DNA of 64,000 nucleotides from Eubacteriales bacterium (GTDB taxonomy: Bacteria > Bacillota > Clostridia > Oscillospirales > CAG-272): positions 3,585 to 67,584 of the forward strand of contig JAZULL010000059.1 of the NCBI GenBank assembly GCA_045603085.1, given 5' to 3'. The translations under genes and the position numbers were made by a program. Of this stretch, positions 1 through 59,615 are shown in pieces (the first letter of the stretch is position 1; the number at the start of each line of letters is the position of its first letter). The notes under the pieces are model-generated. The model saw only the letters and a program-made list of their open reading frames with translations, did no database searches and had not been told where the DNA came from.

Positions 1-402
1 ATTACTGTGCACGGTGGTCATAAACAGGTCGCCGTTGACAGCGGCAAGAACGGTCTGTCCGGGGTTTTCCTTGTTGTAATTTGAGGAAGCAGTCATCATC
101 GTCGAGGTGCTGACCACGTACTGACCGCCCTTAAGTACCTCAAGGGACAGGTTGGTGTTGGAAAGGTCACCGTAAGCGACCCAGGCTTCCTTATCACCGT
201 AGGTGCCGGCCAGCGTGATCTTTTGTACGGTTACGCCGGTCTTGGTGCCGTCGGCGAGTGTGATCTCCTCGATTTCTCTGCCAACCTCACCGGACAGCGT
301 ACCGACCGGGTTGACCTCCTCGTCGTCGGCAGTTGCGCTGAACGGAACGAAAACAGAAAGACAAAGGGTCAGACTCAAAACGACTAAAAGTAGCTTTTTC
401 AT
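1..402 (-). CDS. Secreted phosphodiester glycosidase (NAGPA-like) family protein, 5' part only (runs off window)
   Basis: ATG at 402-400 overlaps the upstream stop (ATGA) and follows an AAGGAG RBS. Translates MKKLLLVVLSLTLCLSVFVPFSATA (signal peptide) ... VLAAVNGDLF, a motif typical of this family. Not in the ORF track. Confidence 0.65.
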   Translation of the reverse strand, partial: MKKLLLVVLSLTLCLSVFVPFSATADDEEVNPVGTLSGEVGREIEEITLADGTKTGVTVQKITLAGTYGDKEAWVAYGDLSNTNLSLEVLKGGQYVVSTSTMMTASSNYNKENPGQTVLAAVNGDLFMTTVHSN

Positions 403-2573
403 GATCTATCTCCTTTTTTTGTTTTGGTTTTGAACGCAAGTAAGGTCAGTGCGGGTAAGAGCAGCATAAAGGGAAGGGCAAGTGCGCCCTTGCAGCCCTG
501 GGTGCCGGGGTGATTGCCGGTGCCGTCATCGGGCACGGTCTGCTCGGGCGGGATATATTCCAGCCCCGGGCCTTGGGTGGGTATTTCAATGGTGGGGGCT
601 TCGGTCACGGGCTTGGTGGTCTGCTCGTCCTCGATGAACCCGCCCTGTTCTGTAATGATGCCGTGCTGTGCGGCATATTTCAGCCATGCACTCTCATCGG
701 TAAAGAACAGCATATCCGAAATGCACACCGTCTGTCCTGCGGAGATCTGGGATGCTACGTCCAGTCGCATGCCCAGAATGTTCTGCGTCCAATGCGGCTT
801 GTCGGTCATATCGTAAACGAGATATTCCCATCCATTGCCCTTAAATCCGGCACCGATGCTTCTGGTGCCCTCGGCATAGTTGAAGCCGCCCGAATAGTAA
901 TAGAGCACGAAATTCTGCCCTTGGATCTCCTTATCGGCCATAATACGGAGCACAATGTACTTGTATTTATCCGCGCTGAGCATTTTTGTGCCCGAAAGGG
1001 CGGCGTAGGTCTGCAGATCAAAGCTGACAAAGGGGTCGTTGGTGGTTTCGGTTGCGCTGATCAGCGCGTGACCGTATTCGTTAAAGCTGACCTTGACCTT
1101 GTTTTCATCCGTAAAGCAGGGGGCAAGACTGTCGTCAAACCAAGTGATAATGTCCGATAGCCCCGAGGGTGCACGACCCTCTTCCTTGTATTTGTCTACG
1201 GGCGCACTGCCTTCGTGGAAGATCTCAAACGGAGCAGCTGCCGCGGCCTTTGCACTCTCATAATCGGGATAGAAACCGACAGAGGCGATATTGGCGTAGT
1301 CGGAGGTCTTGGCGTGATTGTCAATAAAGTCAAATCGCATGCCGTGGATCTGACCCACCCAATTTTCCTCCTCGTGAAGCGGAATGATATATCTGTGCCA
1401 ATTGCCGTCGTTTGTGGCCGCGAATGCGATATGGCTGTCACCCGACGGGCCGCGGATCGAACCTGCGCACAAAAACAGACGGAAAAGTCCCTGCGAGTTG
1501 GTGGATGGGGTCTGCGCCGTGATCACGGCGTAGCGATAGTGATCGGCACTGACGGAAATTTCTTTGGTATCTTTCAGGTAAGAGCTGATGTTGAAGTAAA
1601 TGTAGGGGTCGTTTGTGTCCTCGGTGGGATACATTTTGGTGTAAGTGCCCACCGTGTCGTCGCTGACGAGAGTCGCCGTCGCTCTGTTCATGCCGCCTAA
1701 ATACTCATAAGGTGTCAGCGTCATGTGAATGACAAGGTCGCCCGTGTAGTAATCGGGGGCGTTGTAGTAAAGGCGGATATATGAGACGGTCACGGCCCTA
1801 TCGGCCTGCAGCGTCACGTTTCCGGCATAGGTAACGTCAGAGAGGTCAAAGGTATGCACAAAACCACCCTCGGTGGGCTGTGCGGCAGAGGTTTGGGTAA
1901 AACGATGGGGGGAGGTCCGGTCGGTACAGGACAGCGTCAGCGTTGTCGCATCGGTGTCACTGAGCACCTCGACGCGCTCAAAAAGCCCTAAATTATGTGC
2001 ACCCAGATCCACCGATGCATTTGCTGACAGCGTCAGCGAATCCTTTGCACCAAGGCGCTTGGGATTGATCTGTCTGTAGGTGGCGGTCTCGGTGTCCACG
2101 TTTCCGACGGTAACGTTGAGCATGGCCAGCACGTTCAGCTCGTCACCCTGCTCGGTGATGCCGCGCACGAAGATATCGTATACGCCGTCGATCAGTCCCT
2201 GCACGTCAAACACAATGCGAAAGCCTGCCGTGCGGTAGGTGTTGGGGCAGTACGATTTGACATCCTCTCTGGCTTGCACCGCATCGTTATCGCGAATCCA
2301 GGTCTTGCCGCCGTCCAACGTATAGAGATAATAGGCCATTTGTCGGTCGGCTTTGATCCAGCCTGTGATCACGGGCTCGGCGTCCCTGCCGTATGAGGCA
2401 TCACGAATAATGGCGGGGGTGTTTTGGGACACCGTGTTCACGGGATGATCCACGGTGATTCTGTAGCTGCGCAGGGTATCCGCCTGCACGCCGATGCAGG
2501 CAAGGGTAATGAGCAGCACGGTACACAGAAGTGCACAGCCTGCACGGTATATGTAAGAAGAGTTTTTGATCAT
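399..2573 (-). CDS. Exported surface protein: Ig-like N-terminus, two copies of the 'DP(Y/F)...W...RFD' domain, Thr/Pro linker, Cys-TM-basic tail
   Basis: ORF 399..2585 with GGAGG before ATG 2573. Signal peptide present; ends QGCKGALALPFMLLLPALTLLAFKTKTKK. Confidence 0.8.
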   Translation of the reverse strand: MIKNSSYIYRAGCALLCTVLLITLACIGVQADTLRSYRITVDHPVNTVSQNTPAIIRDASYGRDAEPVITGWIKADRQMAYYLYTLDGGKTWIRDNDAVQAREDVKSYCPNTYRTAGFRIVFDVQGLIDGVYDIFVRGITEQGDELNVLAMLNVTVGNVDTETATYRQINPKRLGAKDSLTLSANASVDLGAHNLGLFERVEVLSDTDATTLTLSCTDRTSPHRFTQTSAAQPTEGGFVHTFDLSDVTYAGNVTLQADRAVTVSYIRLYYNAPDYYTGDLVIHMTLTPYEYLGGMNRATATLVSDDTVGTYTKMYPTEDTNDPYIYFNISSYLKDTKEISVSADHYRYAVITAQTPSTNSQGLFRLFLCAGSIRGPSGDSHIAFAATNDGNWHRYIIPLHEEENWVGQIHGMRFDFIDNHAKTSDYANIASVGFYPDYESAKAAAAAPFEIFHEGSAPVDKYKEEGRAPSGLSDIITWFDDSLAPCFTDENKVKVSFNEYGHALISATETTNDPFVSFDLQTYAALSGTKMLSADKYKYIVLRIMADKEIQGQNFVLYYYSGGFNYAEGTRSIGAGFKGNGWEYLVYDMTDKPHWTQNILGMRLDVASQISAGQTVCISDMLFFTDESAWLKYAAQHGIITEQGGFIEDEQTTKPVTEAPTIEIPTQGPGLEYIPPEQTVPDDGTGNHPGTQGCKGALALPFMLLLPALTLLAFKTKTKKGDRS

Positions 2574-2686
2574 ACGCTCCTCCAAAAATACAATACTTCA
2601 GTTTATATTATACAACAAGATTTCCGATATGCATAGAGGGTGCGGGGATTTTTTCGGTTTTGACGGATAATTTCGGGACATTGCAC

Positions 2687-2755: not shown

Positions 2756-3613
2756 TTAGTCCTTCTTCTTGATGCAAACAGCACCCAGAGCGATCATGGC
2801 AACCAGAGCGGTTACGCTGATGATAGAGCCACAGCTCTTCTCGGGCTCGGTGGTTGCGGGAGGAGCGGTCTGAATCTCAGAGGTGGGAGCCTCGGTCTCT
2901 TCCTCGGTGGTATCATCCTCAGTATCCTCGGGAGTGGTGTCCTCTTCCTCGTCGTAGCCTGCGTATGCAAGAGCCTCTTCCTCGGTTGCGAAGAATGCCA
3001 TTTCGTACAGGTAAATGACGGTCTCCTCATCGGCGCCCATGGGGTCAAATCTGAAGCTGTTGTAGTTGCCTTCGCAGTCGCCGGTCAGGTCGTAGATGAT
3101 GTACTCGATCTCACCGGTACCCTCACAAGGATAGTCGGTTACGGTAGCGTAAGCAGGGTCTGCACCGTTAACGGTGCCTGCGCAGTAGAACAGCTCGAAA
3201 TCGTCAACGTAGCCTTCGATCTTGAGCTTGAAAACAACGAAGGGGTAGGACTGAGAATCCAGGTGCTCAAGGTCTGCCTTTCTGATGTACTGGGAATACT
3301 GAATGTAGAAGTAGGGGTCGCCGGGATCATTGATCAGAACTCTTGCGCCTTCCCACTCGGACTTAAAGAAGGTCTTGTTAACGCCGTTTGGAGCGCTCAG
3401 AAGTCTCCAAGCCTTGCAATCATCGTTGAAGATCAGCAGGGTGTTGGAATAAGAGGGAGCAGCCTCTTCGGTGGTATCTTCGACAGTAGTGCCGTCAACG
3501 TAGGTGTTTTCCTCGGTGGTTTCTTCGGTAGTCTCTTCAGCTGCGATTGCGGTCAGTGCGAAGCAGGAAGCAACCATCAGCAGAGAAAGAACCAGAGCCA
3601 GTAATTTCTTCAT
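2756..3613 (-). CDS. Exported protein with one 'DPY...RFD' domain, ETT-rich linkers and Cys-TM-KKKD tail
   Basis: AAGGAG RBS before ATG 3613; MKKLLALVLSLLMVASCFALTAIA signal; ends KSCGSIISVTALVAMIALGAVCIKKKD. Confidence 0.85.
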   Translation of the reverse strand: MKKLLALVLSLLMVASCFALTAIAAEETTEETTEENTYVDGTTVEDTTEEAAPSYSNTLLIFNDDCKAWRLLSAPNGVNKTFFKSEWEGARVLINDPGDPYFYIQYSQYIRKADLEHLDSQSYPFVVFKLKIEGYVDDFELFYCAGTVNGADPAYATVTDYPCEGTGEIEYIIYDLTGDCEGNYNSFRFDPMGADEETVIYLYEMAFFATEEEALAYAGYDEEEDTTPEDTEDDTTEEETEAPTSEIQTAPPATTEPEKSCGSIISVTALVAMIALGAVCIKKKD

Positions 3614-3751
3614 GGTTATAATCTCCTTTAATAAAGAATATTTGGACATTTATCATTTTATACTATTTTTTCGGAATTGTCAACAGACTGACGGTATTTT
3701 TCGTGACAAAATCGAAAAAGTGGTCACAAAAAGCCAATAAAAACCCGTAAA

Positions 3752-56860: not shown

Positions 56861-57011
56861 AGCCGTACCTCTGCAAAAGGGCTTTTTTATTGCGCCCATT
56901 TTGCGCCGCCCGAAAGGGCAATGGACGCATCCGTTTTCAGAGGGAGGTACACGGGTTTTTTCGTTCAAAACGGAAAAAACCAAATAAATTTTAATGGGAG
57001 GTGCCGAACAA

Positions 57012-57173
57012 ATGGCTAATGACGTAAGAGTCAAGGTAACTCTGGCATGCACCGAGTGCAAGCAGAGAAACTACAACACCAAGAAGAACAAGAAGAACGA
57101 CCCTGACAGACTCGAGCTCAAGAAGTACTGCAAATTCTGCCGCAAGCACACTCTTCACAGAGAAACGAAGTAA
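57012..57173 (+). CDS. rpmG: 50S ribosomal protein L33 (zinc-binding type)
   Basis: [53 protein letters not shown]; GGGAGG RBS; below the ORF-track cutoff. Confidence 0.95.
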
Positions 57174-57189
57174 TCTGGGGGGAAGAGAA

Positions 57190-57804
57190 ATGACTGCTGT
57201 AAAGACAACAAGAACTCTCCTTGCACTCCTGATTGCAGCTGTTCTTGCGTGCTCTCTGTTCACCGTTGGCGTGTTCGCTGCTGAGGAAAACACCACCGTC
57301 GAAGAGACGACCGTGGAGGAGACCACTGCAGAGGAGACCTCGGGCGAAGAGACCACCGCTGAAGAGTCCACCACCGCAGGCAAAGAGGAAACCACGACCA
57401 AGAAGGAAGAGGAAACCACTACTGCAGGTGAGAAGAACTTCTGGGAGAAGAACTTCATGCTCAAGGATAAGCCCTACTGGCTCAAGATCGCTACTTGGGC
57501 ACTGGTACTGCTGGGCCTTATCGCAGGCGTTGTGTTCTGTGTGATCAAGAGAGAAAAGGTAGGAGAATTCCTGCGCGCTCTGAAGAGCGAGTTGAAGAGA
57601 ATCGTTTGGAGCTCTTGGAAGGATACCCGCAAGAATACCTTCGTGGTACTTGTTGTGGTAATTGCGATCACCCTGGTGATCTACCTGTTCAACATGGTGC
57701 TGGAAATGATTTTCGGTAGCGGAACAAGTTCCGGTAGCGGAATGTGGTTCAACATGAACCTGATCTCGCTGATCAAGAAGTGGATCACGAGCATTGGTAG
57801 CTGA
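57190..57804 (+). CDS. secE: Preprotein translocase SecE with long N-terminal extension
   Basis: Lies between rpmG and nusG; FLRALKSELKRIVWSSWKDTRKNTFVVLVVV SecE core. Confidence 0.88.
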   Translation: MTAVKTTRTLLALLIAAVLACSLFTVGVFAAEENTTVEETTVEETTAEETSGEETTAEESTTAGKEETTTKKEEETTTAGEKNFWEKNFMLKDKPYWLKIATWALVLLGLIAGVVFCVIKREKVGEFLRALKSELKRIVWSSWKDTRKNTFVVLVVVIAITLVIYLFNMVLEMIFGSGTSSGSGMWFNMNLISLIKKWITSIGS

Positions 57805-57806
57805 AA

Positions 57807-58346
57807 ATGAGCGATATCGATGCTATGAACGTTGGCCCAAGATGGTATGTGGCGCACACCTATTCGGGTTACGAAAACAAAGTAAAAACCAGCCTTGAAA
57901 AAATCGTTGAGAACCGCGGCCTGGGAGATCTGATCTTCGATATCAGAGTTCCTGTGGAAACTGTGGTTGAAAAGAGCGGCGGCGAAGAAAAGATCACCGA
58001 GGTTAAGATCTTCCCCAGCTACGTGCTGATCAAGATGATCATGACCGACGAGTCCTGGCACGCTGTCCGTAACATTACCGGTGTGACCGGCTTTGTCGGC
58101 CCCGGATCCCGTCCCACCCCCCTGACCCCCGAAGAGGTCGAGGCGCTGAACATTGAAGAGGTAAAGGTAAAGCTTTCCTTCAACGTTGGCGACACGGTAG
58201 AGGTCATCAGCGGCTTGTTCGAAGGCTACTCCGGTGTTGTCCAGTCTATCTCGGACGACCTGAAGAATGTCACGGTCCTTGTTAAGAGAGGCCGCCGCGA
58301 CATGCCCGTAGAGCTTGATGCATCCATGATCAAGCCTGCGAACTAA
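57807..58346 (+). CDS. nusG: Transcription factor NusG
   Basis: WYVAHTYSGYENKV, FPSYVL, VRNITGVTGFVG, KOW motif. Confidence 0.96.
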   Translation: MSDIDAMNVGPRWYVAHTYSGYENKVKTSLEKIVENRGLGDLIFDIRVPVETVVEKSGGEEKITEVKIFPSYVLIKMIMTDESWHAVRNITGVTGFVGPGSRPTPLTPEEVEALNIEEVKVKLSFNVGDTVEVISGLFEGYSGVVQSISDDLKNVTVLVKRGRRDMPVELDASMIKPAN

Positions 58347-58476: not shown

Positions 58477-58902
58477 ATGGCAAAGAAAGTATTAGGGTAT
58501 ATCAAGTTGCAGCTGCCCGCAGGTAAGGCTACTCCTCAGCCTCCCGTAGGTCCCGCTCTGGGTCAGTACGGTGTTGCAATTCCCGTATTTACAAAAGAAT
58601 TCAACGAAAGAACCAAGAATGACATCGGTCTGACGATCCCCGTTGTTATTACTGTTTACGCAGACCGTTCCTTCACCTTTATCACCAAGACTCCTCCCGC
58701 GCCCGTTCTGATCAAGAAGGCTTGCGGTCTGGAATCCGGTTCGGCTAAGCCCAACAAGGATAAGGTTGCAAAGATCACCAAGGAACAGGTCAGAAAGATC
58801 GCAGAAACCAAGATGCCCGACCTGAACGCTGCTGACATCGAAGCTGCTATGAGCATGATCGCCGGCACCGCACGCAGCATGGGCGTTGTGGTAGAAGACT
58901 AA
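58477..58902 (+). CDS. rplK: 50S ribosomal protein L11
   Basis: [29 protein letters not shown]. Confidence 0.97.
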
Positions 58903-58919: not shown

Positions 58920-59615
58920 ATGGCAAAGATGGGTAAGAAGTATTCCGATAGCGCTAAGCTGATCGAGAAGTCCAGATTGTATGATACCGCAGAAGCTCTT
59001 GCATTGGTATGCCAGACTTCCAAGGCTAAGTTTGACGAGACTGTAGAAGTACACGTCCGTCTGGGTGTTGACTCCCGTCACGCTGACCAGCAGGTCAGAG
59101 GCGCAGTCGTACTGCCCAACGGTACCGGTAAGACCGTAAGAACCCTGGTATTCGCTAAGGGTGACAACGTTCAGGCTGCTATCGATGCAGGTGCTGATTA
59201 CGTTGGCGGCGCTGAGTACGCTGAAAAGATCCAGAAGGAAAACTGGTTCGAGTTTGACGTTGTAATCGCATCCCCCGACATGATGGGCGTTATCGGCCGT
59301 CTGGGTAAGGTTCTGGGTCCTAAGGGCCTGATGCCCTCTCCCAAGGCAGGCACCGTTACCACCGACGTAGCTCGCGCAGTTCGCGAGGCTAAGGCAGGTA
59401 AGATCGAGTACCGTCTTGACAAGACCAACATCATTCACTGCCCCATTGGCAAGGCTTCCTTCGGCCCCGAGAAGCTGCAGGAAAACTTTGACACTCTGCT
59501 GGGTGCCATCATCAAGGCAAAGCCCGCAGCAGCAAAGGGTCAGTATATCAAGAGCTGTGTTGTGGCTTCCACCATGGGCCCCGGCATCAAGATCAACGGC
59601 GCAAAGCTGAGCTGA
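58920..59615 (+). CDS. rplA: 50S ribosomal protein L1
   Basis: [35 protein letters not shown]. Confidence 0.97.

Follow-up and report, generated by a model that had tools for sequence, protein, structure and literature searches.

A housekeeping SecE with a signal-peptide-like segment, an acidic Thr/Glu-rich stretch and an extra membrane helix in uncultured gut Clostridia

SecE is among the smallest and most conserved parts of the universal protein-conducting channel. We describe here a secE gene whose product is an ordinary SecE by identity and carries an unusual, widely conserved architecture. The gene lies at positions 57190..57804 of a 64,000-nucleotide (nt) stretch of DNA from an Eubacteriales bacterium (assembly GCA_045603085.1, contig JAZULL010000059.1; this whole stretch is called the window below), and is an open reading frame (ORF) of the forward strand that starts with ATG and encodes 204 amino acids (aa). 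Ahead of its SecE core the protein has a segment resembling a signal peptide (segment 1), a Thr/Glu-rich acidic stretch and an extra transmembrane (TM) helix, designated TM2. We regard it as somewhat probable that segment 1 is a signal peptide that is cut off, leaving a housekeeping SecE with two TM helices and a free polyanionic tail. If the signal is cut, this would be, to our knowledge, the first SecE known with a precursor form and an ectodomain. An earlier note, made from the letters of the window, had proposed this layout of signal-like start, Thr/Glu stretch, TM helix, SecE amphipathic helix with its own TM helix and C-terminal tail, and each of these parts was confirmed within the gene (Table 1).

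The ORF is the single housekeeping SecE of the organism. Residues 126-173 of the protein match Pfam SecE (PF00584) with E=2.4e-12 and a score of 47 bits (cut-off, 22.7), and residues 126-175 score 39.6 bits with NCBIfam TIGR00964 (secE_bact), whose cut-off is 27.55. The class features are present, namely an amphipathic helix followed by one C-terminal TM helix in the N-in/C-out orientation, the latter deduced from the positive-inside rule; the hydrophobic segment of the core lies at aa 152-170, and its cytoplasmic side is flanked by KREK and KDTRK. S133, E134, W140 and K148 of the SecE amphipathic helix and motif are invariant in the alignments, and the 'WSS' of this protein occupies the position of 'WP[ST]' in short relatives. 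The gene order at the locus is the canonical rpmG-secE-nusG-rplK-rplA row. An order-wide Pfam search detected SecE in 289 of 301 genomes, with 293 match rows in total. In the window's own genome (G000, 82% complete), a Pfam SecE search gave this gene as the only match, and the long form was the sole SecE above the cut-off in 5/5 genomes of the genus that are each 95-96% complete. Four of these five near-complete genomes have one SecY each and the fifth (G008) has two SecY matches; SecY (PF00344) was not found in the 82%-complete assembly of the window, which we ascribe to incompleteness. The statement of the earlier note that this is a true SecE was thus borne out by profile scores above the cut-offs, with the gene apparently being the only copy.

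Translation of secE starts at 57190. The ATG stands 16 nt behind the stop codon of rpmG (57171-57173), and nusG follows 2 nt past the end of secE. The same Shine-Dalgarno-like element and an ATG right after rpmG were found in 12/12 loci of the genus, and most of the diverged long forms have GGAGG-like sites upstream of the start. In the 12 genus loci the upstream frame is open across stretches of 64-93 aa (measured from the predicted cleavage site to TM2) that differ from each other by whole codons. Among these loci, the ratio of nonsynonymous to synonymous polymorphism (pN/pS) is lowest in the amphipathic helix (0.14), followed by TM2 (0.20), the SecE TM helix (0.27) and codons 1-30 (0.30); the N-terminal extension is translated and conserved under purifying selection.

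This long form is widespread in relatives. A protein search gave 167 matches; among the 120 listed, nearly all are 172-225 aa in length with the same order of parts, and the few that have a name are labelled SecE of uncultured Clostridia. Within the genus, 11 of the 15 other genomes match over the full length, and in the remaining four (79-93% complete) no SecE core was found with the window SecE as the query. Outside the genus, long forms are present in three genera of the same family and in one further family of the order. Those examined in a collection of species-representative genomes (L021-L046, L072 and L085) all belong to uncultured metagenome-assembled genomes (MAGs), which are labelled Clostridia, Eubacteriales, Oscillospiraceae, Clostridium sp., Ruminococcus sp. 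or Lachnospiraceae and were obtained from ruminant, other animal or human gut. The 100 loci collected contain 88 distinct SecEs, comprising 31 long forms, 54 short forms with one TM helix and 3 with another, multi-TM extension; 27 of the long forms were assigned by script and four by eye (L016, L038, L046 and L072), the script having misjudged these four by taking an upstream in-frame ATG. An alignment profile searched against 1.84 billion cluster representatives detected 1582 proteins at E<=0.001. A loose script, which requires a signal-like segment, a net-acidic gap of at least 20 aa, TM2 and the core, placed 104 of the best 150 clusters (50% identity) among the long forms, and a strict script, which requires exactly three hydrophobic segments with the SecE motif between the last two, kept 91 of 149 representatives, whose distances from the site to TM2 have a median of 69 residues (range 1 to 117). 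Homologues with as little as about 35% identity still show this layout, which is therefore more than chance. The earlier note had named relatives lacking the extension as a finding that would speak against it; the relatives keep the extension, and its N-terminal module proved to be conserved as something resembling a Sec/signal peptidase I (SPase I) signal peptide, a disordered Thr/Glu stretch and an extra TM helix. As a separate observation, the first 90 or so residues of P0119 (193 aa, on a 1955-bp contig) are nearly identical to those of P0022, which belongs to the genus of the window, and its TM2 and SecE core are those of another subfamily (motif SECGKI.WC, as in P0239, P0260 and P0261); this represents either recombination or a chimeric assembly.

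Signal peptidase I cuts behind a polar c-region that has small residues at -3 and -1. Segment 1 of the window SecE fits the Sec/SPase I criteria, with its basic n-region, hydrophobic h-region, polar c-region and small residues at -3 and -1. R8, L13 and A30 are invariant in both of our alignments (A1 and A2) and V26 is invariant in A1; S22, F24 and T25 (and, in A1, G27) are nearly invariant. All of the 27 script-classed long forms have Ala at -1, V, A, I or C at -3 and acidic residues next, and in all 27 the spacing from the last N-terminal basic residue is 21-24, while the hydrophobic core itself is divergent. The kept Ala at -1, the small or aliphatic residue at -3 and the fixed spacing together form the signature of what appears to be a signal peptidase I site. 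An Ala-ended site is present in 87 of the 91 three-segment representatives; in 2 the site ends in S or G, and 2 have none, where a site was counted if it had an allowed residue at -3 and lay within four residues of the first acidic residue; because the site finder prefers Ala, the 87/91 means that such a site exists and is not a blind finding. Helix-breaking or polar residues (P, G, S, T or N) are present at -4 to -7 in 88 of 89 representatives. As a control, the same site test was applied to ORFs of the window's genome: it was passed by 11 of 92 first TM helices of polytopic ORFs, several of which are themselves evident signal peptides (YidC, the ATPase proteolipid and giant surface proteins), and by 106 of 240 ORFs with an N-terminal hydrophobic segment only, these being rough rates on crude ORF calls that include shadow ORFs. 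The genome carries a signal peptidase I gene (PF10502, E=6.3e-33). From this pattern of conservation, cleavage of segment 1 appears fairly likely.

Whether segment 1 is cleaved or not, the positive-inside rule would place the stretch between it and TM2 outside the cell. An AlphaFold2 model built on a 56-row alignment has helices at 4-27, 84-89, 97-119, 121-138, 146-175 and 191-203; the predicted local distance difference test (pLDDT) score is 46-61 for helix 4-27 and about 67-74 for helix 97-119, and residues 26-81 have no secondary structure at a pLDDT of about 31. The model is poor (mean pLDDT 54, predicted template modelling score 0.29) and was used solely for the boundaries between helices and disorder.

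The character of the stretch is conserved, acidic and rich in Thr and Ser, and its sequence is not. In the 27 script-classed long forms it has a net charge of -7 to -24, a Thr+Ser count of 9-39 and a variable length. In the window SecE, Tandem Repeats Finder detected 5.7 copies of a 15-nt unit at 57292-57376 within it. Mucin-type Pfam models gave sub-threshold scores only, both for the window SecE (Mucin, 13.4 bits) and for the stretches of its orthologues (New_glue, 30.3 bits against 31; Mucin, 24.7 bits against 34.7); the matches of New_glue, Mucin, Podoplanin, AIF_C and other Pfam families on aa 5-80 are below the cut-off, and we read them as low-complexity or signal-peptide look-alikes. 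In many orthologues a His/Asp run (HDHDHD, HEGHDH), which the window SecE does not have, stands shortly before TM2 (P0013, P0021, P0089, P0107 and P0117; loci L002, L007, L009, L035, L036 and L041) and resembles an outward-facing metal-binding site.

The stretch resembles the linkers of other exported proteins of the same genome, as the earlier note had suggested; the AEETTEETTEE it pointed to is real and follows a signal-like start in the ORF 2756..3649 (-) of the window. A scan of the genome gave 51 ORFs in which an acidic linker rich in Thr, Ser and Pro comes after a signal-like start, and most of those listed have a lipobox-like Cys just ahead of the linker. Besides SecE, the design was seen in just two polytopic core proteins of the genome, YidC and the proteolipid of the V/A-type ATPase. 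YidC has a signal-like segment ending in VMA and a Thr/Glu-rich stretch, followed by about 150 more residues before its first core TM helix. The proteolipid has a signal-like start ending in VFA and an acidic Thr-rich tail of about 25 residues, so that each subunit of the ATPase ring would display such a tail. The stretch thus appears to be the general extracytoplasmic linker of this lineage, and what seems to set SecE apart from YidC and the proteolipid is that a TM helix had to be gained to display it. The idea of the earlier note that a translocon subunit is itself a Sec/SPase substrate agrees with the signal-like signature; it is less exotic than implied there, given that YidC of the same genome has the same start and stretch. 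Several exported proteins, encoded by the ORFs 2756..3649 (-) and 399..2585 (-) of the window and also on C28, C99, C104 and C113 of its genome, end with a Cys motif, a hydrophobic helix and a K-rich terminus (...KKKD), an arrangement that looks like a C-terminal sorting or anchoring signal (a 'Cys-tail' class).

A natural form without segment 1 exists. A metagenome scan with P0229 gave two loci, one of which was usable; this locus (L113, 527..814 (+)) encodes a 95-aa SecE between rpmG and nusG, consisting of an outward tail of 12-13 residues, TM2 and the core, with no signal segment, for which the 14-nt gap after rpmG leaves no room. The representatives P0229 and P0254 share this start. Because this two-TM form lacks the signal segment, a SecE of this type would be able to work without segment 1. 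In other families of the order we observed SecEs of 220-260 aa (L102-L106, from G164, G211, G148, G037 and G066; L107, from G150; L051, L053 and L054), whose N-terminal extensions are several TM helices with no acidic stretch and are of at least two unrelated kinds. As these families carry different multi-TM additions, SecE in this order seems to be unusually prone to N-terminal growth. In a quick tree of the SecE core, 28 of the 32 long forms as labelled by script lie on one side of a branch with 96% support, a side that also holds 10 short and 3 multi-TM rows; two labels of this tree are wrong, those of L072, which belongs to the long forms and has a stretch rich in Ser and Ala, and of L107, which has the multi-TM architecture. 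The tree was made from 67 columns and is poorly resolved (49 of 92 inner branches are open); it would be compatible with one main origin with losses.

Cleavage is read here from the conservation of a motif, and several observations weigh against it. The uncharged run from T9 to A30 is, at 22 residues, long enough to span the membrane; within the genus segment 1 is about as conserved as the structural TM helix of SecE (pN/pS 0.30 and 0.27); some relatives combine the signal-like segment with loops of just 13-16 residues, where an export signal seems hardly needed and a retained hairpin of TM1 (that is, segment 1) and TM2 is plausible; two relatives (P0214 and P0255) have no Ala-X-Ala-like site at all; the aforementioned structural model is silent on cleavage; and the acidic stretch could be a tolerated low-complexity expansion. 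If segment 1 stayed uncut, the protein would be a three-TM SecE with its N-terminus inside, followed by TM1, a long acidic extracytoplasmic loop, TM2, the amphipathic helix and TM3, a topology like that of Escherichia coli that would have arisen independently in Clostridia. NCBIfam models of three-TM SecE do align with aa 89-176, including TM2, and the E. coli hairpin loop between TM helices 1 and 2 reaches TM helix 8 of SecY, according to PMC6776908. These PRK05740-type models, however, score 20-32 bits where their cut-offs are 109-180. The Ala at -1, the small or aliphatic residue at -3 and the 21-24 spacing, which a plain anchor is not known to need, are kept while the core of the segment diverges (27/27 and 87/91), and helix-breaking or polar residues lie at -4 to -7 in 88/89. 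Moreover, the L113 form works without TM1, and neighbouring lineages have one-TM SecEs. We consider the uncut form possible but distinctly the less probable outcome, and keep the cleaved signal peptide as the preferred interpretation.

Three further interpretations concern other points of the protein. A start at the internal Met90 (57457) would give a 115-aa SecE with two TM helices and a tail of 10 residues, leaving the upstream 267 nt outside the protein; such a start would be preceded, 6 nt upstream of the ATG, by the run GGGAGAAG, and natural two-TM SecEs of about 95 aa do exist (L113). This run is, however, simply the codons of the conserved WEKNF motif, and Met is found in just 51 of the 104 homologues that have the surrounding motif, the other 53 having T (43), K (8) or V (2). 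Because the Shine-Dalgarno-like element and the first ATG are kept, codons 1-30 are under selection and Met90 is not conserved, the start is at 57190; upstream of Met90 the frame stays open, is conserved in homologues down to some 35% identity and has a Shine-Dalgarno-like site of its own directly after rpmG. An internal start, which the earlier note had itself raised as an objection, was therefore rejected as very improbable, and gene callers that choose an internal Met would mis-annotate secE. An equally slight chance was given to an accessory SecE paralogue that would serve a special export system for Thr/Glu-linker or Cys-tail proteins, the usual short SecE having been lost from the assembly. 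The 82% completeness of the genome, the SecY missing from it and the two SecY matches of G008 would be in keeping with such a paralogue, whereas the gene occupies the canonical rpmG-nusG slot; because SecE is single in the window's genome and in the five near-complete genomes of the genus, this interpretation was likewise rejected. The A-V-L-A-C at aa 17-21 matches what we take to be a loose lipobox pattern, and most exported proteins of the genome scan have lipobox-like sites, so a lipoprotein signal, with a cut by signal peptidase II before Cys21 and a lipidated mature SecE, was considered as well. Cys21 is, however, replaced by I or F in the genus loci L007-L009 and by F or L in distant long forms, and the conserved element is the VFA site nine residues further on; we rejected this lipobox and find such a signal scarcely credible.

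Taking the preferred interpretation of a cleaved signal, we propose the following course of events. In a clade of uncultured gut Clostridia (Oscillospiraceae/Eubacteriales MAGs), SecE would first have gained a second TM helix ahead of the cytoplasmic amphipathic helix, which would have brought its N-terminus to the cell exterior. The resulting outward tail would in many lineages then have grown to a polyanionic disordered stretch of 20-120 residues rich in Thr, Ser, Glu and Asp, of the same kind as the linkers on the lipoproteins, YidC and V-type ATPase proteolipid of this lineage. A Sec-type signal peptide would be present ahead of the tail because a tail so long and charged cannot cross the membrane unaided, and the two would insert together as a hairpin. 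According to PMC9360617, YidC alone suffices for substrates whose translocated regions are short, and SecYEG is required for more polar or charged ones; the presence of the signal where the tail is long and acidic would fit this need. Signal peptidase I would then cut after ...VFA (A30|A31), and the mature product would be a two-TM SecE (N-out, C-out) whose free acidic tail begins with AEENTT and is tethered beside the channel.

If TM2 were placed like the E. coli hairpin, the tail might emerge beside the lateral-gate exit, a position that we only infer. Our best guess about its role, and a speculative one, is that it would act as a hydrated, cation-binding polyanionic brush on the exit side of the translocon. 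A more specific proposal, for which we would give quite a small chance, is that the acidic tail takes part in export itself rather than being decoration. In this lineage a signal-led and probably O-glycosylated brush would be borne by SecE, by YidC and by the V-ATPase ring. The one on SecE, located near the exoplasmic end of the lateral gate, would concentrate divalent cations, in keeping with the HDHDHD-type run of many orthologues, and might hand substrates with Thr/Glu linkers to enzymes for folding, modification or Cys-tail sorting. Three grades of SecE exist side by side in gut and rumen Clostridia, one with a single TM helix, one with two TM helices and a short outward tail, and one with a signal-like segment and an ectodomain of 20-120 residues; if the tail were indeed a working part, this series would provide a handle on the unexplained accessory helices of SecE. 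That this lineage equips central membrane machines (SecE, YidC and the V-ATPase proteolipid) with acidic linkers rich in Thr and Glu is also relevant to the organization of the wall-facing membrane side in these uncultured organisms.

Table 1. Parts of the window secE, its neighbours and two proteins of the same genome with a similar N-terminal design
Feature	Position	Strand	Description
rpmG (ribosomal protein L33)	56994..57173	+	Upstream of secE; Pfam Ribosomal_L33, E=8.2e-26
G-rich Shine-Dalgarno-like run	57177..57187	+	11-nt element ending 2 nt before the ATG; its G-run ends 7 nt before the ATG
Signal-peptide-like segment, aa 1-30	57190..57279	+	n-region with K5/R8, hydrophobic core L10-F24, c-region T-V-G-V-F-A; predicted SPase I site A30|A31
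Thr/Glu-rich acidic low-complexity stretch, aa 31-81	57280..57432	+	Extracytoplasmic by predicted topology
Juxtamembrane aromatic/basic motif (NFWEKNF...), aa 82-99	57433..57486	+	Conserved within the genus; contains Met90 (57457-57459)
Extra TM helix (TM2), aa 100-119	57487..57546	+	Predicted out-to-in, followed by KREK; Kyte-Doolittle 2.59
Cytoplasmic amphipathic helix and conserved SecE motif (...LKSELKRIVWSSWKDTRKN), aa 120-150	57547..57639	+	Pfam SecE, TIGR00964
Canonical SecE TM helix, aa 151-175	57640..57714	+	Predicted in-to-out; Kyte-Doolittle 2.91; within the Pfam match
C-terminal tail, aa 176-204, and stop	57715..57804	+	Extracytoplasmic Gly/Ser linker and short amphipathic helix; genus-specific
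nusG	57807..58346	+	Downstream of secE; Pfam NusG, E=3.4e-29, and KOW
rplK	58477-58902	+	Named from the translation alone
rplA	58920-59615	+	Named from the translation alone
YidC, 602 aa	G000:C20, locus L110 802..2610	-	60KD_IMP at aa 213-497, E=2.2e-36
V/A-type ATPase proteolipid, 213 aa	G000:C135:28022-28663, locus L112 2526..3164	-	Two ATP-synt_C repeats, E=2.9e-31

Among the closest known systems is the single-TM SecE of Bacillota, such as that of Bacillus subtilis, which shares with the window SecE the core, the rpmG-nusG slot and the presence as a sole copy; it has a short basic cytoplasmic N-terminus, whereas the window SecE has about 120 residues ahead of the core and a C-terminal tail of 29 aa. 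A 2024 survey (PMC10903887) gives Gram-positive SecEs as mostly 50-70 aa, some longer than 140 aa, and always with a single TM helix, and the short one-TM Firmicute SecE assumed in the earlier note is in line with it. Full-text searches of the openly accessible literature gave no paper describing, for Clostridia, a SecE that has two TM helices, an ectodomain or a signal peptide.

The three-TM SecE of E. coli would have the same topology (N-in, two accessory TM helices and the core) if segment 1 of the window SecE were retained. The E. coli hairpin loop is short; unlike that type, the window SecE has 69 residues from the predicted site to TM2 and a conserved SPase I-type site at the end of segment 1. 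The PRK05740 models of three-TM SecE align from about aa 89 onwards, the best score being 31.9 bits against a cut-off of 150. According to PMC6776908, the E. coli accessory helices are non-essential, with a role described as 'largely unclear', and their hairpin, whose periplasmic loop comes near the lateral gate, lies by the C-terminal half of SecY. A three-TM-like form in Clostridia would apparently be of an origin independent of E. coli, nested among one- and two-TM SecEs of this class.

The two-TM SecE of the L113 type (P0229, P0254) is a further counterpart, sharing with the window SecE the TM helix before the amphipathic helix, the outward N-terminus, the gene slot and very similar rpmG and nusG neighbours. 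The window SecE without its signal would equal the L113 form with a tail of 69 residues, whereas the L113 tail has 12-13. For a polytopic protein made with a cleaved N-terminal signal there are known examples in Gram-positive YidC (SpoIIIJ/YqjG) and in CyoA/QoxA; their signals are of the lipoprotein (signal peptidase II) type, and the N-terminus of their cores faces outward in any case. These are a precedent for a part of a translocase or insertase having its own signal peptide, and YidC of the window's genome has the same signal-like start and Thr/Glu stretch as the window SecE. Unlike YidC and CyoA/QoxA, SecE needed an added TM helix to display the tail.

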